From a virus (Duplodnaviria; Caudoviricetes): 64,000 nt of DNA. The stretch's first letter is position 1. The number at the start of each line of letters is the position of its first letter. A model generated the notes under the pieces. It was not told the DNA's origin. It did no database searches and saw only the letters and a list, made by a program, of their open reading frames with translations. The stretch covers positions 75,666-139,665 of the IMG/VR virus record IMGVR_UViG_3300014059_000005; one strand, given 5' to 3'. A program made the translations under genes and the position numbers. Of the stretch, positions 12,203 through 39,731 are shown piece after piece.

Positions 12203-12457
12203 TCATGGTGATGTGGGCGTGCTAGATTGTGAGGGGTTGAAAGGGGATAAGGGGCTGGGATCTTCGGGTCCTGGCCCCTTATTATTTGTCTTTCTGAGGA
12301 CAAGACGAAATCCGTAGTAGTCGGAGAGTGCCCTTGACACATTGTAGTTGCGATAGCAAGAGTAGGCGTTCGATGGTTGATAGGATAACGCACCGCCTCG
12401 GAGCAACCGGAACGGTCTCTGAGTGAGAATCGGTTTGGGTCTTGCGATAAGGATCAT
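12203..12457 (-). CDS. CLec/FGE C-terminal variable micro-gene 1 (C-terminally extended)
   Basis: MILIARPKPI...RLLRGG...YGFRLVLRK. Confidence 0.75.
   Translation of the reverse strand: MILIARPKPILTQRPFRLLRGGALSYQPSNAYSCYRNYNVSRALSDYYGFRLVLRKTNNKGPGPEDPSPLSPFNPSQSSTPTSP
12247..12282 (+). terminator. UUCG-capped hairpin, probable terminator at the convergence of the two transcription units
   Basis: ataaggggctgggatc-ttcg-ggtcctggccccttat. Confidence 0.6.
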
Positions 12458-12630
12458 GGTATTCTCTTGCGGAGAATTATCCGGAAGCCCAAGAAGTCGA
12501 TCCGGTCCGTAGGCCCGGCCCAGTCACGGTTCGCCGACCGACAAGATAGACTGCGGTAGTACCAGCCACCGCCCTGTAGCACCCGGTAGGAGCCATCGAT
12601 GATCGGTCTAGATCTAGCAATCAGGATCAT
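12454..12630 (-). CDS. CLec/FGE variable micro-gene 2 (58 aa; not in ORF track)
   Basis: MILIARSRPIIDGSYRVLQGGGWYYRSLSCRSANRDWAGPTDRIDFLGFRIILRKRIP. Confidence 0.8.
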   Translation of the reverse strand: MILIARSRPIIDGSYRVLQGGGWYYRSLSCRSANRDWAGPTDRIDFLGFRIILRKRIP

Positions 12631-12818
12631 TTATCCCTCTTTCTGAGGATTACTCGAAAGCCCAGACCACCACAGCGAAAACTTTCCGGGTTCCAGATTC
12701 TATGCCACGAACTGGATCGCCAGACCATGCTCTGGAAGCCGCCACCTCGGATGGTATGGGAAACACACTGGGAAGCGATCAGGGACACCAGGGTCCCTGA
12801 TCGCTTCACCAGAATCAC
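12627..12818 (-). CDS. CLec/FGE variable micro-gene 3 (divergent), coupled to the FGE-core stop
   Basis: MILVKR...TIRGGGF...GLGFRVILRKRDK. Confidence 0.75.
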   Translation of the reverse strand: MILVKRSGTLVSLIASQCVSHTIRGGGFQSMVWRSSSWHRIWNPESFRCGGLGFRVILRKRDK

Positions 12819-13822
12819 TGGGAGCCTCCGGACTCTCCAGACTCCCGAAGGGCCTTTTCTGCCGCCTCGACTTCCTTTTTGTACCTCTGGGCATCATAGA
12901 GGCAGGCACACCACTCCCAGACGTTGCCGTGCATGTCGTAGAGGCCAAAGGCATTACAGGGATAGGATCCCACCGGGGTGGTCCGGTTGATCTTCTCATC
13001 GAAGTTGGCCATGTCGTGGGTCAGAGTGCTGCCAAAGGTGTAGGCGCTCCGGGTGCCGCCTCGACAGGAATACTCCCACTCGTACTCGGTGGGTAGTTCG
13101 TAGTAGTATCCCTTGGCGATCTCCTCGGGCAGTTCGGAGAGTTTCTTGCAATACTCCTGGGCGTCGTGCCAGGACACATTTTCCACGGGGTGGCCGGGGT
13201 GCTTGAAGGACGTGGATGGATTGGTGCTCATCACCTTCTCCCACTCCCTCTGGGTAACGGGAAAGGTCCCCATGTACAGACCTTCCATCTGCACCAGGTG
13301 CTGGGGACCTTCATCGGAATGACGATGGGGCTCACTGTCCGGAGAGCCCATGACATTGATGCCGGGAGGAGTGACCTTGAATTCCATGCCGATCGAGTTG
13401 ACGATCCTTGGCATGACCACCGGGACCTTTTCCAGGAGCATGGCCTGGATCTGCTTCTCCACCTCGGGATCGTAGGAATCCGGATCGAGTTGGTTCAGGG
13501 TCATCCGTAGGAGTCGTGCGGATTGCTCCCGACCTTCTTCGATCAGGGCATCGGTGAGGGCAAACCACCCCGTGGTGTCATTGGGGTCGATGGTGAGAGC
13601 GTGCAGGATCGAATCGGTGTCGGTGAAGGCCATAGTGGACTTTCCTTGTGTAAGGGACTTACGGAGAACACGAAAACCAAAGAAGTTGTACCAGTTTGCT
13701 GGTTCACAGGCGTTTCGGTACGTCAACCGGCAATACATCGCAAGAGATAGCCAGCAACCACCTCGAAATATCCGATATGGGGAATCGGGGTATGTTGTTC
13801 GCAAGGTAGTGGTGAGAATCAT
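12815..13822 (-). CDS. TIGR02996-like + FGE-sulfatase (SUMF1/CLec) protein lacking the C-terminal RGG...GFR segment; micro-gene 4 fused in frame at the N-terminus (alternative start 13633)
   Basis: NSIGMEF..PPG..MGS, PVTQREW, HPVENVSWHDAQEYC, LPTEYEWEYSCRGG, NAFGLYDMHGNVWEWC, then a stop; N-terminus MILTTT..RIFRGGCW..CRLTYR..FGFRVLRK. Confidence 0.9.
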   Translation of the reverse strand: MILTTTLRTTYPDSPYRIFRGGCWLSLAMYCRLTYRNACEPANWYNFFGFRVLRKSLTQGKSTMAFTDTDSILHALTIDPNDTTGWFALTDALIEEGREQSARLLRMTLNQLDPDSYDPEVEKQIQAMLLEKVPVVMPRIVNSIGMEFKVTPPGINVMGSPDSEPHRHSDEGPQHLVQMEGLYMGTFPVTQREWEKVMSTNPSTSFKHPGHPVENVSWHDAQEYCKKLSELPEEIAKGYYYELPTEYEWEYSCRGGTRSAYTFGSTLTHDMANFDEKINRTTPVGSYPCNAFGLYDMHGNVWEWCACLYDAQRYKKEVEAAEKALRESGESGGSQ

Positions 13823-13998
13823 TTCTCTTTTTTCTTTCTGAGAGCAACCCGGAAGCCCATGTCGTTGTATCGTAATGTTGGTCTGTACCCGATGCGGTAC
13901 GACGACCTGTAGTTCCGGCCGACGCAGCCCCAGCAACCACCCCGGCTCATCCAGAGGGAACCCTGAATGATCGGCCCAGGTTTAGCAATGAGGATCAT
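13819..13998 (-). CDS. CLec/FGE variable micro-gene 5
   Basis: MILIAKPGPIIQGSLWMSRGGCWGCVGRNYRSSYRIGYRPTLRYNDMGFRVALRKKKEK. Confidence 0.8.
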   Translation of the reverse strand: MILIAKPGPIIQGSLWMSRGGCWGCVGRNYRSSYRIGYRPTLRYNDMGFRVALRKKKEK

Positions 13999-14171
13999 CA
14001 GCCCCTCTTTCTGAGGATTGCCCGGAAGCCCAGGAGGTTGTCCCGGAGCATCGGCACGAGCCTGAGGCAGCGTGCCGACCGGCAGTTCTGGCCGGGGCTG
14101 TACCAGCAGCCGCCCCGGATCACCTGGAAGGAGCCCTGGAGGATCGGTCCAGGTCTAGCGATCAGGATCAT
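13998..14171 (-). CDS. CLec/FGE variable micro-gene 6
   Basis: MILIARPGPILQGSFQVIRGGCWYSPGQNCRSARCLRLVPMLRDNLLGFRAILRKRG. Confidence 0.8.
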   Translation of the reverse strand: MILIARPGPILQGSFQVIRGGCWYSPGQNCRSARCLRLVPMLRDNLLGFRAILRKRG

Positions 14172-14344
14172 CTCGACCTCTTTCTCAGGATCACCCGGAA
14201 GCCCAGATCGTGGTCCCGTTTCGGCGGCACGACCCTGCGGCGGTCCGCCGACCGGCAGTACAGGCCGTGACCGTTCCAGCAGCCGCCCCGGAACACCCGG
14301 TAGGAGCCCTGAATAATTGATTTAGGTTTAGCAATCAGGATCAT
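14168..14344 (-). CDS. CLec/FGE variable micro-gene 7
   Basis: MILIAKPKSIIQGSYRVFRGGCWNGHGLYCRSADRRRVVPPKRDHDLGFRVILRKRSR. Confidence 0.8.
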   Translation of the reverse strand: MILIAKPKSIIQGSYRVFRGGCWNGHGLYCRSADRRRVVPPKRDHDLGFRVILRKRSR

Positions 14345-14526
14345 TTCGATCTCTTTCTGAGGATTGCTCGGAATCCCAGGCCGTTTTCCCGATACGTTGG
14401 TGTATACCTGTGGCGGTACACCGACCGGCAGAACTGGCCGATGTTGACCCAGCAACCACCCCGGATCGTCTGGAACACCCGGTAGGAGCCCAGGGTGATT
14501 GATCCAGGTTTAGCAATCCGGATCAT
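14341..14526 (-). CDS. CLec/FGE variable micro-gene 8
   Basis: MIRIAKPGSITLGSYRVFQTIRGGCW...CRSVYR...LGFRAILRKRSK. Confidence 0.8.
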   Translation of the reverse strand: MIRIAKPGSITLGSYRVFQTIRGGCWVNIGQFCRSVYRHRYTPTYRENGLGFRAILRKRSK

Positions 14527-14708
14527 TAGCCTCTCTTTCTGAGGATTACCCGGAAGCCCAGATCGTCGTACCGGAACGCTGGTCTGTATCCGATGCGGTA
14601 CGACGACCTATAGTTCTCGCCGACGCAGGCCCAACTACCGCCCCGGATCGCCCAGATCACCCAGTGGGAGCCCAGGGTGATAGGTCTAGGTCTAGCAATC
14701 AGGATCAT
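14526..14708 (-). CDS. CLec/FGE variable micro-gene 9
   Basis: MILIARPRPITLGSHWVIWAIRGGSW...LGFRVILRKRG. Confidence 0.8.
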   Translation of the reverse strand: MILIARPRPITLGSHWVIWAIRGGSWACVGENYRSSYRIGYRPAFRYDDLGFRVILRKRG

Positions 14709-14736
14709 TTGTCTCTCCTCTTTCCTTGCTGTGTCA

Positions 14737-14766
14737 CAACTATGCACCAGGAATTCGGAAAGTCAA
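14737..14766 (-). promoter_or_regulatory. Repeated phage promoter TTGACT-N16-CATAGT upstream of micro-gene cluster 1
   Basis: One of 13 copies with identical 16-nt spacing. Confidence 0.75.
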
Positions 14767-14785
14767 ATGAAAATGAAGAGTTCGG

Positions 14786-15115
14786 CTACAGCTTCCTGCG
14801 GTTGCGAAGTTCCGCATCCCCACCACAGAAGCGGCACAGCTTGTGCTTCGTGGCGCAATTGGTACAGAGCACATCCACACAGGTGTTGCCATAGTGCATC
14901 TCCGTCTTGCACATTCCACACAGGGCTACGGTACACATGGCACCACCGATACGGCCCCGCATGTAGTGGCAAACCCGGCACATGCATTTCTTCTTGCGGA
15001 TCTCCAGATCGGGATCTTCGTAGCACTTTTTGACAGAATCGTAATATGCCTGTGAATAATTCGTCGCTCTCAAAACGGCACAGAGATCCCAGGGTTTGTA
15101 GATTGGCTCTCGCAT
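14786..15115 (-). CDS. Zinc-finger protein
   Basis: CRVC, CGMC, CTNC, CRFC pairs. Confidence 0.6.
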   Translation of the reverse strand: MREPIYKPWDLCAVLRATNYSQAYYDSVKKCYEDPDLEIRKKKCMCRVCHYMRGRIGGAMCTVALCGMCKTEMHYGNTCVDVLCTNCATKHKLCRFCGGDAELRNRRKL

Positions 15116-15717
15116 GATAATAAACTCTTGCGAATCTTGTTCAGGGCGTTGACATGGGACTGACTCACTGCTGATCGGGACACTCCCAGGCCATCGGCAA
15201 TGTCGCACAGCCGTCTACCCTTGAGGTAGTGTTCTTCCAGTACGAATCGCTGATAGGGCTTCAGGACGGACAGGAGGGACTCACAAAGATCGGCATCGTC
15301 CAGGGTTCGCTTCCAGGAGCAATCGATGACAGGGAGGGCCTTGGGGTCATAGGGGACTCGGGTGGGCAATGGATAGACGACCTTGGCCTCGAAACTGCTC
15401 TTGCTCATGGGATGGTGTAGACTGCGAATATATCGCTGTATCTGGTTGCGGACACTCCTCCAGGCGTAAGTGCCGAAGCGGACCCCATGCCTGGAGTCAT
15501 AGTTCCTGGCACATCTCCAGAGTGCCACATCCGCTACCTGGACCAGTTCCTCGTAATCGAAGCACATCCCCAGGAATCTACCGTATTGGAGTGCCTTCTT
15601 GGCCAGGATTCTGGAGACTCCACGGTTCTCGGACCAGAGTAGTTCGATCCGGAGTCTCTCTTCTTCGGCGGACTTGCTCGTGGATTCTTTCGTGGACTTG
15701 CTCGTGGATTTGCTCAT
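15070..15717 (-). CDS. Sigma-70 family RNA polymerase sigma factor
   Basis: EELVQVADVALWRCARNYDSRHGVRFGTYAW (region 2); HTH LCDIADGLGVSRSAVSQ (region 4). Confidence 0.85.
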   Translation of the reverse strand: MSKSTSKSTKESTSKSAEEERLRIELLWSENRGVSRILAKKALQYGRFLGMCFDYEELVQVADVALWRCARNYDSRHGVRFGTYAWRSVRNQIQRYIRSLHHPMSKSSFEAKVVYPLPTRVPYDPKALPVIDCSWKRTLDDADLCESLLSVLKPYQRFVLEEHYLKGRRLCDIADGLGVSRSAVSQSHVNALNKIRKSLLSCESQSTNPGISVPF

Positions 15718-15736
15718 GACCGTGTACCCGAATCCC

Positions 15737-15769
15737 AAAGAGAGGGGGACACAACCGCCCCCTCTCTTT
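15737..15769 (-). terminator. Intrinsic terminator-like hairpin
   Basis: aaagagaggggg-N9-ccccctctcttt. Confidence 0.5.
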
Positions 15770-15777
15770 CGCGAAGG

Positions 15778-15960
15778 TCACTTCTTGCTGGGTTTGGGTG
15801 CCAGTAACTTGGCGAGCAATTCCAGGGCCTTGTGTGTGGGCAATTCGGACAGGATCTTCCAGGATACGGCGTGGACTCGGGACACGTCCGCCACACCGAT
15901 CTTGGTCTTCTCGGTGTCCACCTCGCTGGCCACGGCATTCTTGAACTCGGTCGGGGTCAT
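15778..15960 (-). CDS. Hypothetical protein
   Basis: 60-aa ORF with ATGA coupling. Confidence 0.55.
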   Translation of the reverse strand: MTPTEFKNAVASEVDTEKTKIGVADVSRVHAVSWKILSELPTHKALELLAKLLAPKPSKK

Positions 15961-16607
15961 CGGTCTATCTCGTGAGATTCAGAAGATATCTCCGGGGTCA
16001 CATATTCGGTCCCGGAGTCCACAGGTCGGGTACGGACCACGCTGCCCGTTACCAGCCTACGATTGTGGGTCACGAACAGGATCTGGAGTCCTAATTCTCT
16101 GGAGAGAGTCTCCAGGAGGAACCTCACTCGATCCTGGTATTCCTCGGAGACGAAGCGAAAGGGCTCGTCCAGGGCCAGGAATGTTCGTCTCCTGGTTCTG
16201 GATAATAACAGACAGGCCAGCCTCAGGGCAAAGGCACTGACATCGATTACACCACCTCCACAGGACCCCAAGGGGTCCTCGACCTCTCTACCATGATCGA
16301 GAAGGGTGAGTGTAGCCTCGGTGCGGCCACGCTTGTCCTCGAAATCGATTCGCAGGGAATAGGTATCCTTGCCGAATACTGCTTCCAGGCATCTGGAGGC
16401 TATCTCGGAGACTCTACCGTGGCAGGCCTCCTGAACCTGAACCGCAACTTCCTGGGCGATGGAGAGAGACTTTTTCAGGTGTTCCTGCTCCTGGATCAAT
16501 TCCTGGGATCTGGAGGACTCACTGGAAGTATTCTTGATGGCAACCTGGTATTCCATCAGGAGAGGTCGCAATTGATTCCGATAACGATCCAGGGCGGTAG
16601 GCGTCAT
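15957..16607 (-). CDS. SbcC/Rad50-like ATPase, C-terminal half
   Basis: Signature-like SCGGG, Walker B/D-loop LALDEPF, H-loop FVTH; no Walker A. Confidence 0.85.
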   Translation of the reverse strand: MTPTALDRYRNQLRPLLMEYQVAIKNTSSESSRSQELIQEQEHLKKSLSIAQEVAVQVQEACHGRVSEIASRCLEAVFGKDTYSLRIDFEDKRGRTEATLTLLDHGREVEDPLGSCGGGVIDVSAFALRLACLLLSRTRRRTFLALDEPFRFVSEEYQDRVRFLLETLSRELGLQILFVTHNRRLVTGSVVRTRPVDSGTEYVTPEISSESHEIDR

Positions 16608-16780
16608 GAGGTTTTCTTTCTGAGGATTACCCGGAAGTCCAGATCGCTGAACCGGAACGTCGGCTCGAGCCTGCCACGGTACGCCGACCGGCAGTTCCGG
16701 CCGCTGCTGCTCCAGCCGCCGCCCTGGATCACCCGGCCAGAGCCCTGTAGGATCGGCCTAGGTCTAGCGATGAGGATCAT
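16604..16780 (-). CDS. CLec/FGE variable micro-gene 10
   Basis: MILIARPRPILQGSGRVIQGGGWSSSGRNCRSAYRGRLEPTFRFSDLDFRVILRKKTS. Confidence 0.8.
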   Translation of the reverse strand: MILIARPRPILQGSGRVIQGGGWSSSGRNCRSAYRGRLEPTFRFSDLDFRVILRKKTS

Positions 16781-16953
16781 GGTGTTCTCTTTCTCAGGAT
16801 TACCCGGAAGCCCAGGCCGTGGTTCCGAACCGCCGGCACGTACCTGTGGCAGCGTGCCGACCGGCAGTTCTGGCCGGGGCTGTACCAGCCACCGCCCCGG
16901 AACACTGAGAGGGAGCCCTGGATAATTGATCTAGGCCTAGCAATCAGGATCAT
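16777..16953 (-). CDS. CLec/FGE variable micro-gene 11
   Basis: MILIARPRSIIQGSLSVFRGGGWYSPGQNCRSARCHRYVPAVRNHGLGFRVILRKRTP. Confidence 0.8.
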   Translation of the reverse strand: MILIARPRSIIQGSLSVFRGGGWYSPGQNCRSARCHRYVPAVRNHGLGFRVILRKRTP

Positions 16954-17126
16954 TTGTCTCTCTTTCTGAGGATTACTCGAAAGCCCCGGCTAAGATAGCG
17001 GAACGACGCAAAATATCTATAGCGGCGTGTCAATCCACAGGTCCCATAGCAGCTACGCCAACCACCACCCCGATACACTGGTTCATTTCCTTGAATGCCT
17101 GGTTTGGGTCTAACGATCTGGATCAT
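16950..17126 (-). CDS. CLec/FGE variable micro-gene 12
   Basis: MIQIVRPKPGIQGNEPVYRGGGWRSCYGTCGLTRRYRYFASFRYLSRGFRVILRKRDK. Confidence 0.8.
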   Translation of the reverse strand: MIQIVRPKPGIQGNEPVYRGGGWRSCYGTCGLTRRYRYFASFRYLSRGFRVILRKRDK

Positions 17127-17197
17127 CTGTCTTTCTTTCTGAGGATTGCCCGGAAGGAGCCCCAGACAATCGGTCTGGGTTTGTTGATCCGGATCAT
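17123..17197 (-). CDS. 'Empty' micro-gene 13 (variable core deleted in frame, 24 aa)
   Basis: MIRINKPRPIVWGSFRAILRKKDR; both ATGA overlaps retained. Confidence 0.7.
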   Translation of the reverse strand: MIRINKPRPIVWGSFRAILRKKDR

Positions 17198-17376
17198 TTC
17201 ATATTCTTTTTCAGGATCAACCGCAATCCAAAGTTGTTGAACGTGGTTTGTGGAATGTACCCAACACGCCTGGCCGCTCGGCAGGGCCATTCATAGTTGA
17301 ACCAGCCGGCCCCCCGAACCATGAGTTCTCGGCCCCGAAAGATCGGTCTAGGTCTAGCGATCAGGATCACGATCAT
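17194..17376 (-). CDS. CLec/FGE variable micro-gene 14
   Basis: MIVILIARPRPIFRGRELMVRGAGW...CRAARR...FGLRLILKK. Confidence 0.8.
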   Translation of the reverse strand: MIVILIARPRPIFRGRELMVRGAGWFNYEWPCRAARRVGYIPQTTFNNFGLRLILKKNMK

Positions 17377-17765
17377 TTCCCCCGAAGTCTGGGTCCATAT
17401 TCTTCCTCGAACCTCTGATATTCATCATCGATCGAATCTTGCTGATGTCGTAATTGCGCAGCAAGTCTCGTCAATTCCTCCCGGGCGTCCTCCAGGGAGT
17501 TACAACCGAACTGAGTTTTCAATCTACGAAGGACTTCCTGGAGGGCTCCCTGGACCCGATCTCTTTGTCGGGTTACGGTCTCTAGTTGCTCCTGGATAGC
17601 ACGGTACTCCTCTACCGTGATCCGCTTCGTGGAGACCCCCGGTCGATCGCCGTCAGGAGGATCTCCTCCACCCTGGGGTCTTCCGGTTGGATTCGCAGTC
17701 TTTGTCTCACGGCCTCCTGATACGACGGTGGTGCGTCGGGAGCCCTTTTCAGTGTTTCCAGACAT
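17373..17765 (-). CDS. Small coiled-coil protein (true start probably near 17620)
   Basis: Heptad-rich C-terminal ~80 aa; located between SbcD and SbcC-C. Confidence 0.5.
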   Translation of the reverse strand: MSGNTEKGSRRTTVVSGGRETKTANPTGRPQGGGDPPDGDRPGVSTKRITVEEYRAIQEQLETVTRQRDRVQGALQEVLRRLKTQFGCNSLEDAREELTRLAAQLRHQQDSIDDEYQRFEEEYGPRLRGK

Positions 17766-18580
17766 AGATCGATCTCACCCCCCAGAACCTTCTTTGGTTT
17801 TCTGTGATCCTCGGTCAGTACATCCCTGGAGCAATCCAGGTAGTGCGGTTCTATGGAATCATCAGAATGATAGATCCACACCCTGGGCTCGTGATCCTTC
17901 TGGTCCACGGCCAGCCGCATGAGCGAGCCGCAGTTGACCACTGGGGGGACCTTCTTCCTGGCGGCAAAGGGTATATGATTGTCCCCCACGAACACCGCGT
18001 TGTAGCCCTGGACCATACTCCGCAAGGCATCGAGGGAGTGGGACTCTGGGGCATCCTTGTATCCCGTACTGTATCCAGCAGTCCTGGTCCAGGTGTAGCG
18101 ATGTACCACTGCTACTTCCTGGAGCAAGGACACCCCGCCTGTCAGTGGTTCCGGGTCCTGCCTCCAGGGGAATCCCCAGAGCCTCAGAGGGTGTGCCCCG
18201 GGAATTTCCACTGGTTGTCCAAAATGCAGAGGGATGACCCTACCAGACAGCACCAGAGTGTGAAACGACGATCTGTGGATTTGTGCGTAACTATGATTGG
18301 GTAGGTCGTGATTACCCGCCACGGAGTAGAGTGTCGGCAGGTACTCCAGGGCGAAGTTCACCAATTCCGGGGGCGAAATGGGAATATCGAATATATCCCC
18401 ACAGCAGATTACTGGCACCCGGAGAGTGTCAGCAAGGTTGCGAACCTGGAGGAGAACTCTCTTCTGAGCCTCGTACCAGCTGGGCTCCGACTGTCTGCAC
18501 ACAGGAGGCGTATGCGACAGATGGATATCGGCCAGGAATATCGCCACCGGAACTACAGGGTAGACCGGCAGAGCGGACAT
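17612..18580 (-). CDS. SbcD/Mre11-like metallophosphoesterase nuclease
   Basis: ADIHLS, CGDIFD, AGNHD, VGDNH, NCGSLMR motifs. Confidence 0.9.
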   Translation of the reverse strand: MSALPVYPVVPVAIFLADIHLSHTPPVCRQSEPSWYEAQKRVLLQVRNLADTLRVPVICCGDIFDIPISPPELVNFALEYLPTLYSVAGNHDLPNHSYAQIHRSSFHTLVLSGRVIPLHFGQPVEIPGAHPLRLWGFPWRQDPEPLTGGVSLLQEVAVVHRYTWTRTAGYSTGYKDAPESHSLDALRSMVQGYNAVFVGDNHIPFAARKKVPPVVNCGSLMRLAVDQKDHEPRVWIYHSDDSIEPHYLDCSRDVLTEDHRKPKKVLGGEIDLCLETLKRAPDAPPSYQEAVRQRLRIQPEDPRVEEILLTAIDRGSPRSGSR

Positions 18581-30372: not shown

Positions 30373-30554
30373 GGATTCCTAGCCTGTTGTTTTCTCAGGA
30401 TTACCCGGAAGCCCAAGTAGTTGAACCTGTACAACGATACGACCCTATGGCGGTCCGCCGACCGGCAATATTGGCCGAAGTTGAACCAGCTGCCGCCTCG
30501 GAGCACCCGATCAGAGCCTTGAATAATCGGCTTCGGTCTAGCAATCAGGATCAT
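30357..30554 (-). CDS. CLec/FGE variable micro-gene 17
   Basis: MILIARPKPIIQGSDRVLRGGSWFNFGQYCRSADR...YLGFRVILRK. Confidence 0.8.
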   Translation of the reverse strand: MILIARPKPIIQGSDRVLRGGSWFNFGQYCRSADRHRVVSLYRFNYLGFRVILRKQQARNPCQKP

Positions 30555-30727
30555 GTCGTTCTCTTACGAAGGACAAGTCTCAATCCCACAAGGACAGATA
30601 CTCCATCAGGCACAAACCAGCAACGGTACGCCGAACGGGTCCAATCTTCGTTTGATGGGCGGCTACCGCCTCGGAGTATGGGCTCGACTCCCTGTAAGAT
30701 CGGTTTGGGCTTTGTTATCAGGATCAT
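30551..30727 (-). CDS. CLec/FGE variable micro-gene 18
   Basis: MILITKPKPILQGVEPILRGGS...TRSAYR...VGLRLVLRKRTT. Confidence 0.8.
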   Translation of the reverse strand: MILITKPKPILQGVEPILRGGSRPSNEDWTRSAYRCWFVPDGVSVLVGLRLVLRKRTT

Positions 30728-30900
30728 GATACTTTCTTTTTGAGGATTACTCGAAATCCCAGATCGCAGGACGAGGGCAGTGGCTCGTTCCCGTAGCGGA
30801 GCGATGACCGGTAACTCAGAACGAAGTCGTACCAACTACTGCCCCGGATCACCCAGAGGGAGCCTGAGATGATCGGTCTAGGTCTGGCAATGAGGATCAT
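30724..30900 (-). CDS. CLec/FGE variable micro-gene 19
   Basis: MILIARPRPIISGSLWVIRGSSWYDFVLSYRSSLRYGNEPLPSSCDLGFRVILKKKVS. Confidence 0.8.
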   Translation of the reverse strand: MILIARPRPIISGSLWVIRGSSWYDFVLSYRSSLRYGNEPLPSSCDLGFRVILKKKVS

Positions 30901-31079
30901 GGTGTTCTCTTGCGGAGAATGATGCGGAGGCCCAGGAAGAAGCCCGGGCCTGTCGGATCATACCCATAGCGGTCCGCCGATCGGCAGAACCGGCTGTACC
31001 CGTACCAGCTACCGCCCCGGAACACTCGGGACAGATTTTCTGACCCGATCATCTTGTTGATATTGGATATCGTAATCAT
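30897..31079 (-). CDS. CLec/FGE variable micro-gene 20
   Basis: MITISNINK...RVFRGGSWYGYSRFCRSADR...LGLRIILRKRTP. Confidence 0.8.
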   Translation of the reverse strand: MITISNINKMIGSENLSRVFRGGSWYGYSRFCRSADRYGYDPTGPGFFLGLRIILRKRTP

Positions 31080-31089
31080 GTCTATCTTC

Positions 31090-32242: not shown

Positions 32243-32431
32243 TCACTGAGGTTGAATTGGATGTTTCTTTCTGAGGGCAATCCGGAAGCCCAGGTTGTAG
32301 AACCGAACTGTCGGCTCGAACCTGTTGCGGTTCGCCGACCGACAGCGTCCACCATAGAAGATCCAGCCGCCGCCCCGGTACACCCGGTCGGTGCCCCGGT
32401 TGATAGGTCTAGGTCTAGCGATGAGGATCAT
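32243..32431 (-). CDS. CLec/FGE variable micro-gene 21
   Basis: MILIARPRPINRGTDRVYRGGGW...CRSANRNRFEPTVRFYNLGFRIALRK. Confidence 0.8.
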   Translation of the reverse strand: MILIARPRPINRGTDRVYRGGGWIFYGGRCRSANRNRFEPTVRFYNLGFRIALRKKHPIQPQ

Positions 32432-32607
32432 TTCAATCTCTTTCTTAGGGCAACCCGGAAGCCCAGATAGTTGTCCCGATTCGACGGCACGAGCCTATCG
32501 CGGTACGCCGACCGGCAGTACCAGTTGTCGTAGCTAGACCAACTGCTGCCCCGGAACATCCGGTAGGAGCCCAAGGTGATAGGTCTAGGTCTAGCGATCA
32601 GGATCAT
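32428..32607 (-). CDS. CLec/FGE variable micro-gene 22
   Basis: MILIARPRPITLGSYRMFRGSSWSSYDNWYCRSAYRDRLVPSNRDNYLGFRVALRKRLK. Confidence 0.8.
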   Translation of the reverse strand: MILIARPRPITLGSYRMFRGSSWSSYDNWYCRSAYRDRLVPSNRDNYLGFRVALRKRLK

Positions 32608-32780
32608 TTATCTCTCTTTCTCAGGACAACACGGAAGCCCAGATCGCTGAACCGGAACATCGGACCATTTCTAACGCGGGGCGACAACCGGCAGTACAGG
32701 TCGCCGCTGACCCAGCCACCGCCCCGAAACACCCGGTAGGGGCTCTAAATGATCGGCTTAGGTTTAGCGATCAGGATCAT
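32604..32780 (-). pseudogene. Micro-gene 23 with an in-frame TAG at codon 12 (32745-32747)
   Basis: MILIAKPKPII*SPYRVFRGGGWVSGDLYCRLSPRVRNGPMFRFSDLGFRVVLRKRDK; many other copies have CAG here. Confidence 0.75.
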
Positions 32781-32791
32781 GTGGATTCCTC

Positions 32792-33394
32792 TCAAGCTCC
32801 CAGACCGGCCCCGTCATGGTATCGGAACAACCCACAGGCAAGCAGTTTGCCCCGTGACGCCTCGATGGTGGCACTGACGGCCTGCGGGGACACCCCCAGC
32901 ACCTTCGCCGTCTCGATCATGGATCCGGTCCCCGTCGGGCCGTAGACGGACCACATGATCTGGTACTGGCGTGGGGTCAGGGTGGCCTCGATCCTTTCCC
33001 ACAACTCTTCCAGTTCGATCTTCGATCCCGGCCTTTCGTTTGCCAGCAACCACCCCAAAGAGTCCCCCTCGATGCTCTGGCAGCTGAGTCTTCGTATCTG
33101 CTCCCGGAGTGACTCCTTGGTGTGCTGCTCCGGGATGTGGATGATCGTTCGCAGTACACTCGCCTCCCTGCGGAGACCCCTTTCCATCCAGACGGTGGCA
33201 TACGTCGAGAAGGCGATTCCCCGCAACGGGTCCCACTTCTCGGCCGCACGGATCAGGAGTAGCGTGGCGATCTGCACCAGGTCGTCCATGTCGTTCTCGT
33301 CCTGGCAAGCCCACCGCCCGAACCTCTGGGCTGCCGCGTGGGCCAGTCCCAGGTTCCCCTCGATCAACCTGTTCCGATGCTCGACGTCGCTCAC
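32792..33394 (-). CDS. Sigma-70 family sigma factor
   Basis: RNRLIEGNLGLA, DDLVQ...AAEKWDPLRGIAFSTYATVW, HTH ETAKVLGVSPQAVS. Confidence 0.85.
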   Translation of the reverse strand: MSDVEHRNRLIEGNLGLAHAAAQRFGRWACQDENDMDDLVQIATLLLIRAAEKWDPLRGIAFSTYATVWMERGLRREASVLRTIIHIPEQHTKESLREQIRRLSCQSIEGDSLGWLLANERPGSKIELEELWERIEATLTPRQYQIMWSVYGPTGTGSMIETAKVLGVSPQAVSATIEASRGKLLACGLFRYHDGAGLGA

Positions 33395-33570
33395 CGCTCC
33401 AGCCTCCGCTTCAGAATCAACCGGAAGCCCCGACCACTACTCAGATATATCGGGGCAACCAATAGACGACTCGCCGATCGAACATACCGGCTATTGTTGC
33501 TCCAGTAACCACCCCGGATCACCTGGTGGGAGCCCCTGAGAATCGGTTGGGGTCTAGGGATCAGGATCAT
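33391..33570 (-). CDS. CLec/FGE variable micro-gene 24
   Basis: MILIPRPQPILRGSHQVIRGGYW...VRSASR...RGFRLILKRRLER. Confidence 0.8.
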   Translation of the reverse strand: MILIPRPQPILRGSHQVIRGGYWSNNSRYVRSASRLLVAPIYLSSGRGFRLILKRRLER

Positions 33571-33703
33571 GGTGTTCGCTTTCTCAGGGCCAGTACCCGT
33601 CGCGGTAGGCGGACCAGAGGATCCCACCGACCCAGCCACCCCGGAGCACCCGAGACGAGGCCCCTACAACGACGATGTTTTTCGGTTTAGATATCAGGAT
33701 CAC
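33567..33703 (-). pseudogene. Micro-gene 25, truncated by an out-of-frame deletion (stop at 33584)
   Basis: VILISKPKNIVVVGASSRVLRGGW...SAYRDGYWP*; the residual CTGAGAAAG tail is out of frame. Confidence 0.65.
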
Positions 33704-33885
33704 GGGACCTTCTTTCTCAGAACCAGCCGGACCCCGTAGTCGCGGACCCGGAAGTCCGGCTCGATCCAGTTGTGGAAGGCGGACCGGCAATACCTTCCGT
33801 AGAGGCAGCTACCGCCCCGGAGCACGCGAGCCGAGGCCCCGACCAGGGTAACGGTTAGCGGTGATCTGACGATGGTAAACTTCAT
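33700..33885 (-). CDS. CLec/FGE variable micro-gene 26
   Basis: MKFTIVRSP...GASARVLRGGSCLYGRYCRSAFH...YGVRLVLRKKVP. Confidence 0.8.
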   Translation of the reverse strand: MKFTIVRSPLTVTLVGASARVLRGGSCLYGRYCRSAFHNWIEPDFRVRDYGVRLVLRKKVP

Positions 33886-34199
33886 GGCAACCCCCCGCTA
33901 TCCCGGCACAGTTCCTCCAGTTCCTCGGGCACGGGGATGCTGTGTTCGGTCAGCAATCGTAGCACGTCCTGGGGCCGGATCCGGTAGTGGGAGGCGTTGC
34001 CCACACGAGTGCCCTTGAGGATCCCACGCTCGATCCACCTGTGGACCGTGCCGATGGACATGGAGGTCAGGCGGGCCACGTCCCCGGTGGTCAGGTTGTT
34101 ACCCAGGGGGCGGTTCTTGCCCTTGGGTTTGTACGTCTTGGGTTTGATCGCCTTGGGCGTGATTGCTTTGGGCGTGGCTGCCTTGGTGTTTTCGCTCAT
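33882..34199 (-). CDS. Excisionase/MerR-like HTH DNA-binding protein
   Basis: LTTGDVARLTSMSIGTVHRWIERGILKGTRV...YRIRPQDV. Confidence 0.8.
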   Translation of the reverse strand: MSENTKAATPKAITPKAIKPKTYKPKGKNRPLGNNLTTGDVARLTSMSIGTVHRWIERGILKGTRVGNASHYRIRPQDVLRLLTEHSIPVPEELEELCRDSGGLP

Positions 34200-35704
34200 G
34201 CCGCTAACTTCACCTTCTTCTTGTGGTGCCAGGACTGGTCGGGCTCACACAACTCGGCCTCGATCTCCAGGGGTACGATGATCCACTTCCAGTGTTCGGG
34301 CAGCTTCTGGGTGATGTAGTACCGGATCTGGTGGATCACGTCCTGTACCTCGTCGGGATGACAGTCCAGGATCATGGAGTCGTGGATCTGCCCCACGATC
34401 CGGGATCGCATCTTCTTCCTCCGGAGCCAAGACTCGGTCCAGATCAGGGCCTGGAGCAGACAGTGGAAACTAGACGATTGTACAGGATAGTTCGTAGCGT
34501 CGTTGCGGGAGAGCAGTCCACCCTTGCCCCAGCGCATGTAGAAGCCGGTGTAGTTATAGAAGCCCTTGTTCTCCAGATAGGCTTCCCACCACTTCTGCTT
34601 CCATCTCTTGTAGACCGAGAAGCGGTTCTCCCAGAAATCATTCTCCACTCTGCGGATATGGTGTTCATAGGTCCCAGGAATCGGTCTGCCCCTGGGATCA
34701 CAGCGACCCAGTTCGGTGATTCCCAGAGATGCCAGGTGCTCCTGGAGCAGAGGCCCAGTGGCTTTCTTGCCATCATCTCCGGGCAGTTTGATCCGTAATT
34801 GCATCTGGCCCAGGGCTTCCCACAGATGGGGAGCACACTGGAAGTAGACAGAGCCATAGAACTGGGGGAAGACGAACTTGTTCTTCGCACAGTAGCGAGA
34901 CTGATCAGATACTTTTTCTATCGGAATTAGATAACATTCTGCCGCCATATCTCGGTGCATGTCGGACTTTGGGTTATGGAGGTACTCCCCCATCACCGGG
35001 TCCTTGTGGTAGCAGTAGGCTATCCGCACCTCGATACCAGAGAGGTCCATCTCCAGGAGTTGGTATCCCGGTCTGGGAACGAAGCAGGACCGCACGATCC
35101 CCGCCATCAGAGGATTGCGCACGGGTAAATTTTGGAAGTTAAGAGATCCTCCAAAGTCTCCTTGGGACTTGTCGCTACCCGAAGAAGATCGGTAGGTAGC
35201 CGCTGTATGCAGATTGAAGGTGGGGTGCAGATAGCCGTCCACCACCTCTCTGCGGATACCCTTCAGGAAGGTTCCCCTGGCCTTCTTCAGGGTGCGGATG
35301 TCGGCGTACTTACGGAGAAAGGGTAGGTCGATCTCCTGGAGTACAGCCTTGTCGGTAGACGCCAGACCTGTCTTCGTGGTTTTCTTGGATTCGTAGCCCA
35401 GGGCAGTGAACAGAATGTGTCGTAGTTGCTCTGGAGAGTCCAGGTTCGTGGACTCTCCATACACACTCTTCCACTGTTTGTAGGTGGTGTCCGATTCTAG
35501 ATCGGTCATTCCTATCCGGATCTGGGCATCGATATCCCCGTCCACCCGCGAGAGGTATTCCTCATCGATACGAATACCGGCATCTTCGACCCTCGACAGG
35601 GCCAGCACACCATCATGGAACAGTTGGTAGGCTTCGGGGAGGGCTGGCTGCAACGCTGCAACTCCTAACGTAACTCCTAACGCAACTACTCCTGACTTGC
35701 CCAC
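34196..35704 (-). CDS. DNA polymerase family A, polymerase domain only
   Basis: NFQNLPVR, motif A DLSGIEVR, motif B R..AKNKFVFPQFYG, NYPVQS, motif C QIHDS. Confidence 0.92.
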   Translation of the reverse strand: MGKSGVVALGVTLGVAALQPALPEAYQLFHDGVLALSRVEDAGIRIDEEYLSRVDGDIDAQIRIGMTDLESDTTYKQWKSVYGESTNLDSPEQLRHILFTALGYESKKTTKTGLASTDKAVLQEIDLPFLRKYADIRTLKKARGTFLKGIRREVVDGYLHPTFNLHTAATYRSSSGSDKSQGDFGGSLNFQNLPVRNPLMAGIVRSCFVPRPGYQLLEMDLSGIEVRIAYCYHKDPVMGEYLHNPKSDMHRDMAAECYLIPIEKVSDQSRYCAKNKFVFPQFYGSVYFQCAPHLWEALGQMQLRIKLPGDDGKKATGPLLQEHLASLGITELGRCDPRGRPIPGTYEHHIRRVENDFWENRFSVYKRWKQKWWEAYLENKGFYNYTGFYMRWGKGGLLSRNDATNYPVQSSSFHCLLQALIWTESWLRRKKMRSRIVGQIHDSMILDCHPDEVQDVIHQIRYYITQKLPEHWKWIIVPLEIEAELCEPDQSWHHKKKVKLAA

Positions 35705-35721
35705 TCCTGGATCATCTGTTC

Positions 35722-35850
35722 CTAGTGGAGCAACTCTTCCCGGACCACGTCCATGCTCCTGGGGGCTCGGATCCCCAGTTTCATCCGCTTGGTGGTGTGA
35801 TAGATCACATCGAGGCGGATCTCGCCATATTCGGTCTGTATGATAACCAT
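35722..35850 (-). CDS. CsrA-like (carbon storage regulator) protein, start uncertain
   Basis: VIIQT..GEIRLDV...KLGIRAPRSMDVVREEL resembles CsrA IGxxAPxxVxVxREE. Confidence 0.5.
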   Translation of the reverse strand: MVIIQTEYGEIRLDVIYHTTKRMKLGIRAPRSMDVVREELLH

Positions 35851-35920
35851 GTCCCGATCATTACACAGGATATCGTGATACCTGGTATTCTTCTCCCTGG
35901 TATTCTGCTCCCTGGTGTCA

Positions 35921-36295
35921 TCATCCGAACTCGGGCACGGCGGTTCCGTCTGGGTGGTAGATGGTGAAGCTCGATTGTCTCTTTGGCTGGTCAAATGCCT
36001 CGACTTGCTGCCCATGTGGTTCCTCGTCTTCCTGGGTTTGGTCGCTCTCGCGTTCGTAAGTACGATCGTTGTCTCGTAGGAGCCTGCCAGGGCCGTACAG
36101 ACGCACCACGGCGTTCTTGCGCAAGAAGGTACGAAAGTAGTCGTAAGAGGCTCTGGCGTCTGTCTCGTTGACGGAAACGATGGGGATCCTGGTGCCCTTG
36201 CGGTAGTCGAAATCGATCTCCACCCGCCACATCGAATCCCCGGTATTCTTGTCTGCTGTCGCATTCTTGTCTGCTGGTGTATTCTTTTCTGACAT
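35921..36295 (-). CDS. Hypothetical protein
   Basis: 124-aa ORF with RBS. Confidence 0.55.
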   Translation of the reverse strand: MSEKNTPADKNATADKNTGDSMWRVEIDFDYRKGTRIPIVSVNETDARASYDYFRTFLRKNAVVRLYGPGRLLRDNDRTYERESDQTQEDEEPHGQQVEAFDQPKRQSSFTIYHPDGTAVPEFG

Positions 36296-36308
36296 CGAAT
36301 TCCTTCCC

Positions 36309-37202
36309 TTACACCTTGCGGTACTCCGTCAGTAACTCGAAGGTCCCATCGGGCAGGGGGACCTTCTGATAGTCTCCAAACAGGTTGGGGGAGTCCTTCA
36401 GGAGCACCTCATAGACCCGGTTGAACAACTTGCGAATCTCGGTCTCCGCGTCTCTGGAACACCGCAGTTCCAGAGCGTTGCGTGCCGCTCTGGCGTTCAG
36501 GGTAACGGAAATCTTGGTTTCCGTCGCGTTGGGAAGTACCGACCTTGCAGCCTGCCGGGCATGCTTGCGAACATCAGTGGGAAGAACTCTCACCGAACCG
36601 CAGACATCACAGAGGATCCTGTTACCATCGATCCGCCATTCGGTGGACTGGCATTGCTTGGGATTGCTAGCAGGGTTGACATTCCCAGGGCATGGTCCAA
36701 CCAGGTTGTGGAGGATCCGATCCACCAGGGCCAGGTAGCAGTTGTGGGAGTGAGCAATAGCTGATTCCCAGATGTCGTGGAGTTCAGGATCGTTGGCGAT
36801 GATGTCAGGCTCGACGTACTCGGCGATCGACTCATCGACGTACCGCTGGGACAGCTGGGAGTAGGCCGCGTGGCGGTGACGGACCAGTTCGTGGGAGCAG
36901 GAGCGGGAGATGCCGGTGAAGAACAGGGTCCAAACCGCATGCTCGGTGACAGACCCGTGCCCGGATTCCAGGATGTGCTGGAGGTATTCCCTGTTGGATT
37001 TCCTACCCCTCTGGTAGGAAAAATAACAAAGGCGTCCCGACATCTCCACCAGTTCCTCGCCGGGGGACCCCGCGTCCTCCTGGGGCCGGCGGAAGGAGTC
37101 GGGGTCCCTCCCCAGTTCCTCCGCACAGAAGTCCGTCCATCCCTGGGCGTCGAAGACCTGCTTGCCGATCAGATAGACCCTGGGCTCACGAATGACCTTC
37201 AT
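36309..37202 (-). CDS. thyX: FAD-dependent thymidylate synthase with Cys4 insertion
   Basis: GRLCY, GHGSVTEH, SRSCSHELVRHR..YSQLSQRY, ARSVLPNATET. Confidence 0.95.
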   Translation of the reverse strand: MKVIREPRVYLIGKQVFDAQGWTDFCAEELGRDPDSFRRPQEDAGSPGEELVEMSGRLCYFSYQRGRKSNREYLQHILESGHGSVTEHAVWTLFFTGISRSCSHELVRHRHAAYSQLSQRYVDESIAEYVEPDIIANDPELHDIWESAIAHSHNCYLALVDRILHNLVGPCPGNVNPASNPKQCQSTEWRIDGNRILCDVCGSVRVLPTDVRKHARQAARSVLPNATETKISVTLNARAARNALELRCSRDAETEIRKLFNRVYEVLLKDSPNLFGDYQKVPLPDGTFELLTEYRKV

Positions 37203-37238
37203 GTGGACTCCGTTGTCTGAAATGGTATCTGGTGGCTT

Positions 37239-38000
37239 TCAGAGAACCTTGGCCGGGGCCTCATTGTTGTCAATTTCTGGTTTGGTACGCGGTGGGTAGA
37301 CCTGGGACAGAAAGTAGCGTTGCATGCTACCGATCTCCAGGCATACACCAATGAGTTCCAATCCGACCTGAGACACCTCATGGCGAACAGGAATGACAGT
37401 AAGGTCCTTGGCCACGAGGGACTCATGGTGATAATAGAACTTCATCGGAGTTACGCCACCAGTCATCCAGTGCCGCAATAGTTTCTCCCGGAAGTCCTTG
37501 ACTCGAATCCTGTAGCGTTCGTGCCGACACTCGTACTCCCATCTGTCTCGCGAGGTCTCCAGTCCCCGCACCTTGGCTTCCAGAGCTTCGATCTTGGCTG
37601 GATCTCCACCCTTACGGGACTTCTCGAATGCCTCGCGGAGACCATCCAGGGCCGTGACGAAACTGGAATCGAAATCCGAGGATGTGGAGAGTTCCTTCAG
37701 ACCGCACTCGGGAACCGGCATCGGGGTCTGTTCGGTCTTCTCTCCTTGTTTCTCCAGGTGCTCCCAGAGCCTGGGCCAGTATTCCAGGTTCTCCTTACGA
37801 CACAGGTAGCCGATGCTCTTGATATTGTCCGTGTTCATGGAGACATCGGTGTTGATGGTACTGGCCACGCCTCGGGGGCAGTTCTGGAGAAACTTACCGT
37901 CCCCGATCAGAACGATGAAGTCCCGCCCATCGATCCACCGCACCATGTAGAGCCCCGGACGCAAACGCCTTACCTTTTCGGAGTCCATAACGAAGTCCAT
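37239..38000 (-). CDS. Hypothetical protein
   Basis: 253-aa ORF. Confidence 0.55.
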   Translation of the reverse strand: MDFVMDSEKVRRLRPGLYMVRWIDGRDFIVLIGDGKFLQNCPRGVASTINTDVSMNTDNIKSIGYLCRKENLEYWPRLWEHLEKQGEKTEQTPMPVPECGLKELSTSSDFDSSFVTALDGLREAFEKSRKGGDPAKIEALEAKVRGLETSRDRWEYECRHERYRIRVKDFREKLLRHWMTGGVTPMKFYYHHESLVAKDLTVIPVRHEVSQVGLELIGVCLEIGSMQRYFLSQVYPPRTKPEIDNNEAPAKVL

Positions 38001-38012
38001 AGCGCCCTCCGA

Positions 38013-38279
38013 CTACTGTTTACCACCAAGGGTATATGCCACCACCGCGTAGAGACACAAAACCAGGATCGCCGCCAGGACTGCGTGCAGTCCTTCTACC
38101 CACAAGGACTCCGCATGGGGTGTCCATTCCGGATCCCACTCAGCATCGATTCTTACCACCATGCGATCTCCCTCGTGGTGTTCCTCATGGTGTCCCTTTC
38201 GAGTGGACTCGACGTGATCCAGACACCTATCACCGCAACGCCCGTTCGTGTTGTCTTTGCACATGATGGGAGTATGCAC
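38013..38279 (-). CDS. Small membrane protein
   Basis: C-terminal hydrophobic helix. Confidence 0.4.
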   Translation of the reverse strand: MHTPIMCKDNTNGRCGDRCLDHVESTRKGHHEEHHEGDRMVVRIDAEWDPEWTPHAESLWVEGLHAVLAAILVLCLYAVVAYTLGGKQ

Positions 38280-38321
38280 TCTGAATCGGATTTGTCAAAC
38301 GGAAATCTTTGGAAAGTATGA

Positions 38322-39536
38322 CTAGACCAGGCCCAGTTGATGCATCTGATGACTGCAAATCTTGTGCTCCAGCAGAGAATCCAGACCACAGTAGAGCAAC
38401 AGGGGCTCCCAGCCATGACGCCGAACGAAGTCCCGTAGTCTGTTGGCGGTGTTGCCGCCGCTGGCCTTCATGTAGGGCTTGACGGTATGGTCATAGGCGT
38501 CCATCCCCAGAAGGGCGAATGCCTGGAATTTGAGCCCCGTAACCCCCTGGCGATTATCCAGAATGTGGGCGGCGATCATACCATCGAGCCCGGCGTCCCA
38601 GTTGTTCACCTCTACCCCGTAGAGGGTACGAACCCAGGTGGTCTCGAACTTGATATTATAACCTAGTTTGGGAGTATTCGACTCCAGAAAGTCCAGAGTA
38701 GCCTCCTGGGTCTTCCTGGTCCAGGGGTAGGCTATGGACTCCCTACCGTCACTGAGTGAACAACAGAGGATCTCGGCGTCCCTGGGGTAGGGTTTGAGCA
38801 TGTTGGTTTCCAGATCCCACGCCACTGGACGGGATCCGATCATACTATGGATGCACGAGACGGCCTCCCCATCATCCAGAATCGTCCGGACCCGCTTGCG
38901 GTAGTCGGGGACGGTCTGGTAGGGGGGAGATCCCACCAGGGCGATGGCGTCGGCCAGGACATCCTGGAACACCGACAGATAGGGATCTGGCCCACCATTT
39001 CTGGGCTCGTTGCGAAGGACATGAGCGGGGTGAAAGTTGGGTACGATCCAGCAGTTGAGTTGTTGATGGGGGATAGTCCAGCCTACCCACTTGTTGATAC
39101 CTCCTGGGTCCTCCTTCCAGACCCAGCCAAGGACGCTGCGGACGGCAGCACCGCCCAGGAGGATCATGACCTCGGGTTTCAGTTCCCGAACCTTCTGGAC
39201 GACCAGGGGACGGCAGTAATCGACTGCTTTCTCGGGGAGTAGGTTACGTGGAGGGTGACAGGATAGAGCATTGGTGATCCAGCAATCCTGACGCATGTCG
39301 ATACCGAGACGGAGAAGGGTCCTGGCCAGAAGGTCTCCGGATCGACCACAGAAGGGCCTGCCCTGGAGATCCTCGTTGTCGCCAGGTGCCTCACCAACGA
39401 TGAGGATTTTCTTCTGGCCCTTGCCCGAGAGCGGCATCTTGGGAGTGCGACATTGCTTGAGAAGACCACACTTGCCACAGTTGGGGAGCAGGGGGATTTC
39501 GATCCGTTTGTGATCGCTGACACCAAAGAATCCCAT
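38322..39536 (-). CDS. Family-4 uracil-DNA glycosylase domain fused to a 3'-5' exonuclease (N-terminal part of a split SPO1-type PolA)
   Basis: CGKCGL..C, VGEAPG..ED..GRPF.G.SG, TNALSC.P, FHPAHVLR; ExoI WDLET, ExoII GYNIKFE, ExoIII YCGLD. Confidence 0.9.
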   Translation of the reverse strand: MGFFGVSDHKRIEIPLLPNCGKCGLLKQCRTPKMPLSGKGQKKILIVGEAPGDNEDLQGRPFCGRSGDLLARTLLRLGIDMRQDCWITNALSCHPPRNLLPEKAVDYCRPLVVQKVRELKPEVMILLGGAAVRSVLGWVWKEDPGGINKWVGWTIPHQQLNCWIVPNFHPAHVLRNEPRNGGPDPYLSVFQDVLADAIALVGSPPYQTVPDYRKRVRTILDDGEAVSCIHSMIGSRPVAWDLETNMLKPYPRDAEILCCSLSDGRESIAYPWTRKTQEATLDFLESNTPKLGYNIKFETTWVRTLYGVEVNNWDAGLDGMIAAHILDNRQGVTGLKFQAFALLGMDAYDHTVKPYMKASGGNTANRLRDFVRRHGWEPLLLYCGLDSLLEHKICSHQMHQLGLV

Positions 39537-39539
39537 ATG

Positions 39540-39731
39540 TCACCGTGCTGGGGAATTCATTGGAGATTTTCGCAGAGCGATACGGAAGCCCAGGAGGCTG
39601 TACCGGAACGACGGCCCGCTCTTGTCGCGGTACGCCGACCGGCAGTCCCGGCCGAGGCTGCGCCAGCCACCGTTCCGGACCACCCGGTCGGAGCCCCGAA
39701 TAATCGGTCCAGGTTTAGCAATCAGGATCAT
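39540..39731 (-). CDS. CLec/FGE variable micro-gene 27
   Basis: MILIAKPGPIIRGSDRVVRNGGW...CRSAYR...LLGFRIALRK. Confidence 0.8.
   Translation of the reverse strand: MILIAKPGPIIRGSDRVVRNGGWRSLGRDCRSAYRDKSGPSFRYSLLGFRIALRKSPMNSPAR

Follow-up and report, generated by a model that had tools for sequence, protein, structure and literature searches.

Micro-genes of a phage without reverse transcriptase carry a footprint of retroelement adenine mutagenesis and probably form an archived library of lectin variable segments

Diversity-generating retroelements (DGRs) are known as live diversifiers, in which a single template repeat (TR) serves one or a few targets and the gene for the reverse transcriptase (RT) adjoins. 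The pilS and vls silent cassettes and the lamprey variable lymphocyte receptor (VLR) and V segments remain silent until recombination copies them into a single expression site. A published survey of DGRs gives at most eight targets per DGR. Here we analyze a 64,000-nucleotide stretch of DNA (the window) from a tailed phage (Duplodnaviria; Caudoviricetes), comprising bases 75666-139665 of the 139,665-bp virus record IMGVR_UViG_3300014059_000005, in which numerous free-standing micro-genes encode proteins of 56-58 amino acids. The segment they encode (RGGSW ... CRSAxR ... GFR) is the variable segment of DGR targets of the formylglycine-generating enzyme (FGE)/C-type-lectin class, such as Treponema denticola TvpA (Protein Data Bank identifier 2y3c), and the same columns vary. 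We argue that the micro-genes are probably a hard-wired germline library of the variable repeat (VR) segment of such a target, which would be archived rather than active.

An iterated profile search, seeded with four copies, found about 31 micro-genes on the minus strand of the window and nine more, outside it, on the plus strand (genome positions 10.6-13.6 kb), for a total of about 40 in the whole phage. An initial annotation, made from the letters of the window alone, had placed the family at 12454-39731; the family is real, but that range leaves out the nine micro-genes beyond the window as well as those at 58.7-62.1 kb. Each micro-gene has a constant start (MILIARPxPI..GS), a variable center bounded by RGGxW, CRSAxR and P..R, and a constant end (LGFRVILRKR). 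Within the arrays, the period is 173 nt, each stop codon overlaps the next start (ATGA), and the purine-rich last codons of one gene occupy the expected ribosome-binding site of the next. One long repeat protein read under another genetic code was considered and rejected, because successive genes change frame, with the 173-nt period and the ATGA overlap. The arrays are dispersed across a replication module that includes a sigma factor, an SbcCD-like pair, RecA, two polymerases and helicases. Although the record is labeled linear, about 98 nt are repeated at its two ends, and the junction is bridged by four contigs of other samples (L006-L009), so that the phage genome is closed and is complete, either circular or terminally redundant.

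The initial annotation attributed the variation of the micro-genes to DGR-type adenine mutagenesis and reconstructed a template in which the variable codons read AAC. A scan of bacterial genomes for the motif implied by that template gave at least 120 listed matches, 80 of which were taken as loci, and the reconstruction proved to represent a real and widespread TR class, with near-identical TRs in Planctomycetota, Verrucomicrobiota, cyanobacteria and a phage. As reference templates we used 64 N-rich TR-like sequences of the same lectin class, bacterial and phage. For 35 of the 64, BLAST found a cognate VR at the same locus, with 80-100% of the 7-25 mismatches falling on TR adenines; because the mismatches are confined mostly to these adenines, we take the 35 sequences to be real TRs. 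When viral contigs were scanned for TR-like patterns, L079/L080 alone matched. Phage L079 carries a real DGR, with an RT adjoining a TR of this class and 18 of 22 mismatches at adenines.

Columns drawn from 34 of these validated, independent TRs predict where the micro-genes vary. Sites that are adenine in the TRs are hypervariable in 22 of 24 cases, compared with 3 of 39 other sites (Fisher p 1e-11), and TR adenine tracks micro-gene hypervariability with an area under the curve of 0.97 and a Spearman correlation of 0.80. After removal of the columns forced by the search pattern, the counts are 16 of 18 TR-adenine sites and 3 of 29 others (p 8e-8).

The asymmetries within codons are more specific. 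At the 11 columns that are AAC in the TRs, NNC and NNT (NNY, where Y is a pyrimidine) make up 89% of the 413 micro-gene codons, compared with 56% third-position Y in the genome (p 3e-48), and 19 copies are NNY throughout. Even among codons of four-fold degenerate boxes at these columns, 86% end in Y, whereas the genome has 57.5% and the remainder of the micro-genes 50.5% (p 4e-11); these third positions being silent, the choice of amino acid is no explanation. The first and second positions are randomized (49% and 65% purine). Amino-acid-changing transversions at the third positions amount to 9.8%, compared with a neutral 19.2% at constant four-fold sites (p 8e-4); plain diversifying selection predicts values above the neutral one, which argues against selection alone. 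K, E, Q, M and W, in keeping, are rare at the AAC columns (22 of 413 codons). Codons with one template adenine vary solely at that base (AGG/TGG/GGG, AGC/GGC/TGC, GNG, CNG). Conservation is absent from all 14 adenine-plurality sites of the variable span but seen at 24 of 64 other sites there (p 0.004), and the flanks hold many conserved adenines. Taken together, the NNY excess, the suppressed third-position change and the single-adenine codons suggest that most of the diversity was written by adenine mutagenesis of the DGR kind. A-to-N variation with the other bases kept is evident at the level of the family, blurred by later drift, and as a footprint the DGR origin of the variation is well supported.

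Several observations weigh against this reading. A first test, on columns defined by entropy, was weak (68% C/T in four-fold boxes compared with 60% in the genome, p 0.04); columns so defined are circular, so that they were taken instead from real TRs outside the phage. A contrast in arginine codons, CGN in the variable span and AGR in the flanks, is partly confounded, and we downgraded it, given that the purine tract at the 3' end also acts as ribosome-binding site for the gene that follows. The hypervariable columns also coincide with the positions at which the fold binds its ligand, so that column-level agreement with TRs is expected under plain diversifying selection and only the within-codon asymmetries speak specifically for adenine mutagenesis. 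Finally, with no cognate TR or RT found anywhere, the footprint is the sole basis for inferring the DGR step. The coincidence with ligand-binding positions also favors an explanation that we consider rather doubtful, namely, that no DGR ever acted on these copies and that a descendant of a DGR-type lectin, with its NNC codons, was duplicated and then diversified by point mutation and selection, with the third positions lagging. Against it, third-position transversions that alter the amino acid occur only half as often as neutral ones, with the first two positions saturated; W, E and Q turn up often at columns where a single template adenine suffices and seldom where a third-position change is needed; and the single-adenine codons vary at the adenine alone.

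The arrays and the single scaffold gene that lies among them are as follows.

12287..12818 (12287-12457, 12463-12630, 12636-12818), minus strand: array of three micro-genes (profile E 3e-16 to 7e-29), the outer two degenerate.
12815..13633, minus strand: truncated FGE/C-type-lectin scaffold of 272 amino acids (PF03781 E 7e-43, profile positions 7-207 of 255).
13655..13822, minus strand: degenerate micro-gene, now without a stop of its own, that lies upstream of the scaffold open reading frame and runs into it in frame (profile E 3e-16 within a 388-amino-acid open frame).
13831..14708 (13831-13998, 14004-14171, 14177-14344, 14350-14526, 14532-14708), minus strand: array of five micro-genes (profile E 1e-26 to 4e-30).
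16613..17370 (16613-16780, 16786-16953, 16959-17126, 17203-17370), minus strand: array of four micro-genes with a 20-amino-acid remnant (17138-17197), found with the profile.
22975..23291 (22975-23118, with an 8-codon deletion, and 23124-23291), minus strand: two micro-genes directly downstream of a RecA-like gene.
30387..31079 (30387-30554, 30560-30727, 30733-30900, 30906-31079), minus strand: array of four micro-genes (profile; PF03781 positions 211-254, E 0.002).
32264..32744 (32264-32431, 32437-32607, 32613-32744), minus strand: array of three micro-genes (profile; PF03781 positions 211-254, E 5e-4).
33403..33876 (33403-33570, truncated 33587-33703, 33709-33876), minus strand: three copies upstream of a family A DNA polymerase gene.
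39564..39901 (39564-39731, 39737-39901), minus strand: two micro-genes, found with the profile.
58703..59061 (58703-58888, 58894-59061), minus strand: two micro-genes, found with the profile, beyond the range of the initial annotation.
61932..62102, minus strand: single micro-gene, found with the profile, also beyond that range; its L006 orthologue is identical in protein.

The two copies spelled out in the initial annotation, its copies 10 (16613-16780) and 27 (39564-39731), agree with the DNA letter for letter. The last micro-gene of its array, 32613-32744, lacks the N-terminal constant part, and the fusion of a degenerate copy to the scaffold recurs in the relative L010. The block that holds the micro-genes at 58703-59061 is 95.2-95.9% identical to relatives, compared with 99.3-99.7% in the flanks. 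At window positions 58293-61091, relatives differ by three replaced or deleted stretches (~57754-58293, 59445-60047 and 60674-61091).

It is highly improbable, in our judgment, that these units are non-coding, whether as a DNA or RNA repeat or as silent cassettes that serve only as recombination donors. They are very short and repeat in tandem every 173 nt, and a few are truncated or have no start codon, all of which would suit such a view. Nearly every copy, however, starts with ATG, is preceded by a purine tract and ends in a stop of its own; among the copies, the constant columns show a ratio of nonsynonymous to synonymous divergence (dN/dS) of 0.20, with synonymous sites near saturation (dS ~1.1); and no full-length acceptor gene bearing the variable segment is found in the genome. 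In the same vein, a comparison with the close relative L011 (flanks 98.5% identical) finds none of 134 constant first and second positions changed, compared with 3 of 67 third positions.

Relatives also show how the copies change at present. The micro-protein profile found none among the viral contigs, and those described here were obtained from a protein database and its contigs. In the L011 comparison, the old adenine sites differ by 9.7% and silent sites by ~4%, with some changes at non-adenine sites; over the recent comparisons, old adenine sites change 1.4-2.4 times faster than synonymous sites. In relatives diverged by 2-7% in the flanks, variable regions are kept or have changed at adenine and non-adenine sites alike. 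The orthologues of 14350-14526 and 14532-14708 in L010 (flanks ~96%) retain their variable regions, and other slots carry different or mosaic cassettes: L010:2117-2299, the orthologue of 14350-14526, has the same variable region joined to the N-terminal constant part of the neighbor 14177-14344, which implies recombination between adjacent cassettes. L001 and L002, which are assemblies of one sister phage, have 13 identical micro-genes and differ by one whole-unit indel and two substitutions. Their lineage, with a scaffold 68% identical to that of the window and at least 26 micro-gene copies, keeps the layout of scaffold plus array, which is found also in the diverged phages L010 and L081. To judge from these alignments, the copies now change by ordinary substitution under mild positive selection, by recombining with one another and by gaining or losing units.

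Much of this would be expected if no DGR had acted on the copies: at dS ~1.1 they are old paralogues, third positions of the hypervariable codons drift like other synonymous sites (purine/pyrimidine retention 86% compared with 81%), and in recent time the old adenine sites exceed synonymous ones just 1.4-2.4-fold while non-adenine sites change too. Nonetheless, the historic excess at positions 1 and 2 over neutral transversions, by a rough estimate more than 6-fold, lies above that recent rate, and we continue to favor past DGR mutagenesis followed by drift.

The initial annotation had seen no all-AAC copy, RT or accessory variability determinant (Avd) in the window, and this holds for the whole genome. 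PF00078 matches nothing in the closed 139,665-bp genome, although the same search detects the L079 RT beside its TR (E 1e-20), and no RT-like motif was seen in the phage genome. PF05635, for Avd, has no match there, an HRDC accessory lying outside that search, and the six frames of the genome hold no TR or N-rich extra copy; a complete DGR cassette is thus wanting in RT, TR and Avd. Nor could the copies template one another, as the non-adenine mismatches number at least 10 in every pair. In the 3' constant region the protein is conserved, synonymous sites drift, conserved adenines are kept and no GC-only tract was seen, so that nucleotide-level conservation resembling an initiation of mutagenic homing (IMH) site appears to be absent.

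Of the two alternatives offered by the initial annotation, archived DGR products fit the data, and a single DGR now acting in trans on the micro-genes does not. The idea that some or all of them are even now being mutagenized by a DGR of the host or of a co-infecting element, to which we give little credence, has in its favor that targets are present in a phage from which RT and TR are absent, that TRs of the same class abound in bacterial genomes, many of them Planctomycetota, and that the RT-less phage L081 (below) has modules identical at 73 of 106 columns and no TR in its record. DGR homing, however, resets all non-adenine bases to the template sequence, yet the copies differ widely at those bases: from one another, as noted, and by at least 10 non-adenine sites in 99 nt from even the closest of the 64 sampled external TRs. 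The synonymous drift of the 3' region, apparently without IMH-like conservation, the dS of ~1.1, the orthologous variable regions unchanged at 4% flank divergence and the identity of the L001 and L002 copies likewise speak against it, and current trans-acting mutagenesis of the ~40 copies is unlikely.

Comparable arrays exist in other phages, with no RT in those whose complete records were searched. L081 is an unrelated, AT-rich phage of 43 kb (CheckV 100%) in which a gene encoding a module and an FGE core without the C-terminal segment is followed by five small genes (65-77 amino acids) and one of 160 amino acids (L081:5580-7862), each of the six beginning with a variable-region module. Across the six modules, 73 of 106 columns are invariant, and adenine accounts for only 3 of these bases. 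The L081 record contains no RT and no extra template copy, and a protein-based search for the template of the array gave distant relatives only. By its pattern of bases, L081 looks like a freshly DGR-written array without its DGR. It shows that mini-gene arrays can be written with the non-adenine sites left identical, which counts further against diversification without a DGR, and it keeps alive the idea that a DGR was borrowed in trans before the library froze. In L004:9260-11073 and L005:8834-11015 (136 kb and a 200,889-bp contig), tandem genes of 88-98 amino acids with two modules each adjoin a short FGE gene and an SbcCD pair, as in the window. One open reading frame has four tandem modules before the FGE core in L021:6668-7861 and two in L085:9749-10606, and neither of these records (98-100% complete by CheckV) has an RT match.

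The proportion of NNY codons at the AAC columns declines across these sources, which we read as a gradient of age, as follows.

L081: 100% (65 of 66 codons end in C).
L004/L005: 98%.
L021/L085: 95%.
Ordinary viral FGE variable regions: 94%.
The phage analyzed here: 89% (63% C, 26% T).
L001: 74%.

Other arrangements were also seen among viral FGE genes. The 121-kb phage L047, which has direct terminal repeats and yields no RT match, carries nine full-length FGE paralogues (242-272 amino acids) head to tail (L047:4539-11425). In several canonical viral FGE targets (L013:10580-10811, L063:10545-10793, L074:8222-8473, L059:10821-11062), a second VR copy, differently diversified and readable in another frame, lies ~80-125 nt upstream of the terminal VR; neither copy is a template.

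The scaffold at 12815-13633 is the sole FGE gene of the phage. It scores well above the gathering cut-off of PF03781 (147.5 bits, cut-off 23.3) but covers only profile positions 7-207 of 255, and it ends about 20 amino acids past the WEWC motif, so that the variable C-terminal segment is absent. Its FGE core, modeled by AlphaFold2 (AF2) with a predicted local distance difference test score (pLDDT) above 90, has PvdO (5hha), human FGE (1y1h) and TvpA (2y3c) as Foldseek neighbors. The core is preceded by a weak TIGR02996-like helical N-terminus (13430-13633; 18 bits, below the cut-off of 29); we take this family to be typical of Planctomycetota, and it is the only hint seen for the host suggested in the initial annotation. 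The micro-proteins match PF03781 at positions 211-254 only, with 12.7-20.1 bits, below the 23.3 cut-off, and appear to be fragments of the FGE domain rather than whole members.

Modeled alone, the micro-protein has no confident fold (pLDDT 49, AF2). With the scaffold core, it reaches an interface score (ipSAE) of 0.95, compared with 0.04 for the best of three controls, and a pLDDT of 90, and the runs share at least 98% of contacts; 58 of 80 solved complexes pass the mark applied here, as do 2 of 110 mismatched pairs. The model supports the predicted binding of the scaffold by the micro-protein, with reservations: the partners are two halves of a much-solved fold, so that the pass may reflect likeness to FGE structures and not binding; AF2 leaves the copy fused to the scaffold unplaced (pLDDT 22-40); and a first-strand-like N-terminus is present in the micro-proteins and also in the scaffold, so that simple two-piece complementation may be too simple. 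The AF2 model thus gives no support for complementation in cis by the fused copy.

The course of events that we consider probable would run as follows. Past DGR adenine mutagenesis would have written the diversity from a template of the widespread class with AAC variable codons, in which A becomes N and AAC becomes NNC, and its products would then have been fixed as ~40 separate, translationally coupled genes. The copies now evolve by ordinary substitution, under purifying selection at the constant ends and ~2-fold faster at the old adenine sites, recombining with each other and gaining or losing whole 173-nt units. Each micro-protein, disordered on its own, may dock onto the single truncated FGE scaffold that lacks its segment, which would rebuild a lectin fold bearing one of ~40 alternative binding surfaces. 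As the micro-genes lie within the early/replication module, an intracellular target is likelier than a tail receptor. A broader proposal, which we advance only tentatively, is a strategy of two stages, in which a DGR of the host or a co-resident element would write VR mini-gene arrays of RT-less phages in trans, as in an L081-like state, and the arrays would then be kept as a permanent library, as in this phage, with library peptides plugging singly into one truncated lectin scaffold. If true, the two stages would amount to a split, combinatorial binder system: an adaptive diversifier would have given rise to an innate repertoire, which would be expressed together with the replication genes and may be directed at host intracellular proteins.

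The DGR footprint in ~40 separate micro-genes of a phage that either lost the machinery or never possessed it suggests that DGR output can be banked as a heritable repertoire, and the NNY excess in four-fold boxes at template-adenine columns offers a sequence-only marker of former DGR targets. The possible assembly at the protein level, with one scaffold and many alternative binding tips, belongs to a layout that recurs in several unrelated RT-less phages; if confirmed, it would give viruses a new means of deploying numerous binding specificities simultaneously, and would offer a natural blueprint for engineering split binders. Our literature searches found no description of RT-less VR micro-gene arrays beside a truncated scaffold.

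With the FGE/C-type-lectin DGR targets, the micro-genes share the codon logic of NNC from AAC, and the scaffold model resembles 2y3c. Unlike those targets, which bear the variable segment at their C-terminus, this phage has ~40 free-standing genes of 56-58 amino acids and a scaffold without the segment; unlike those systems, it has no RT, TR or Avd, and its copies have drifted at non-adenine sites. Multi-target DGRs likewise have several VRs from one template class, whereas here there are ~40 units, none matched by a current template, and they are segments, not whole target genes. The circularly permuted or multi-module FGE proteins of L021, L085, L081 and L004/L005 likewise have modules before or beside a core without the C-terminal segment, with no RT in the complete records tested. 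In those phages, by contrast, modules occur as tandem fusions with the core or as pairs within 90-amino-acid genes and show a fresher NNC signature (95-100% NNY, mostly C), and the copies of this phage are many more, free-standing and older. Finally, the pilS, vls and lamprey VLR/V-segment libraries appear analogous, in that many variants of one binding segment are stored with constant ends. Unlike those cassettes, each micro-gene has its own start, stop and ribosome-binding site and is under purifying selection at the protein level, and assembly here would take place between proteins.

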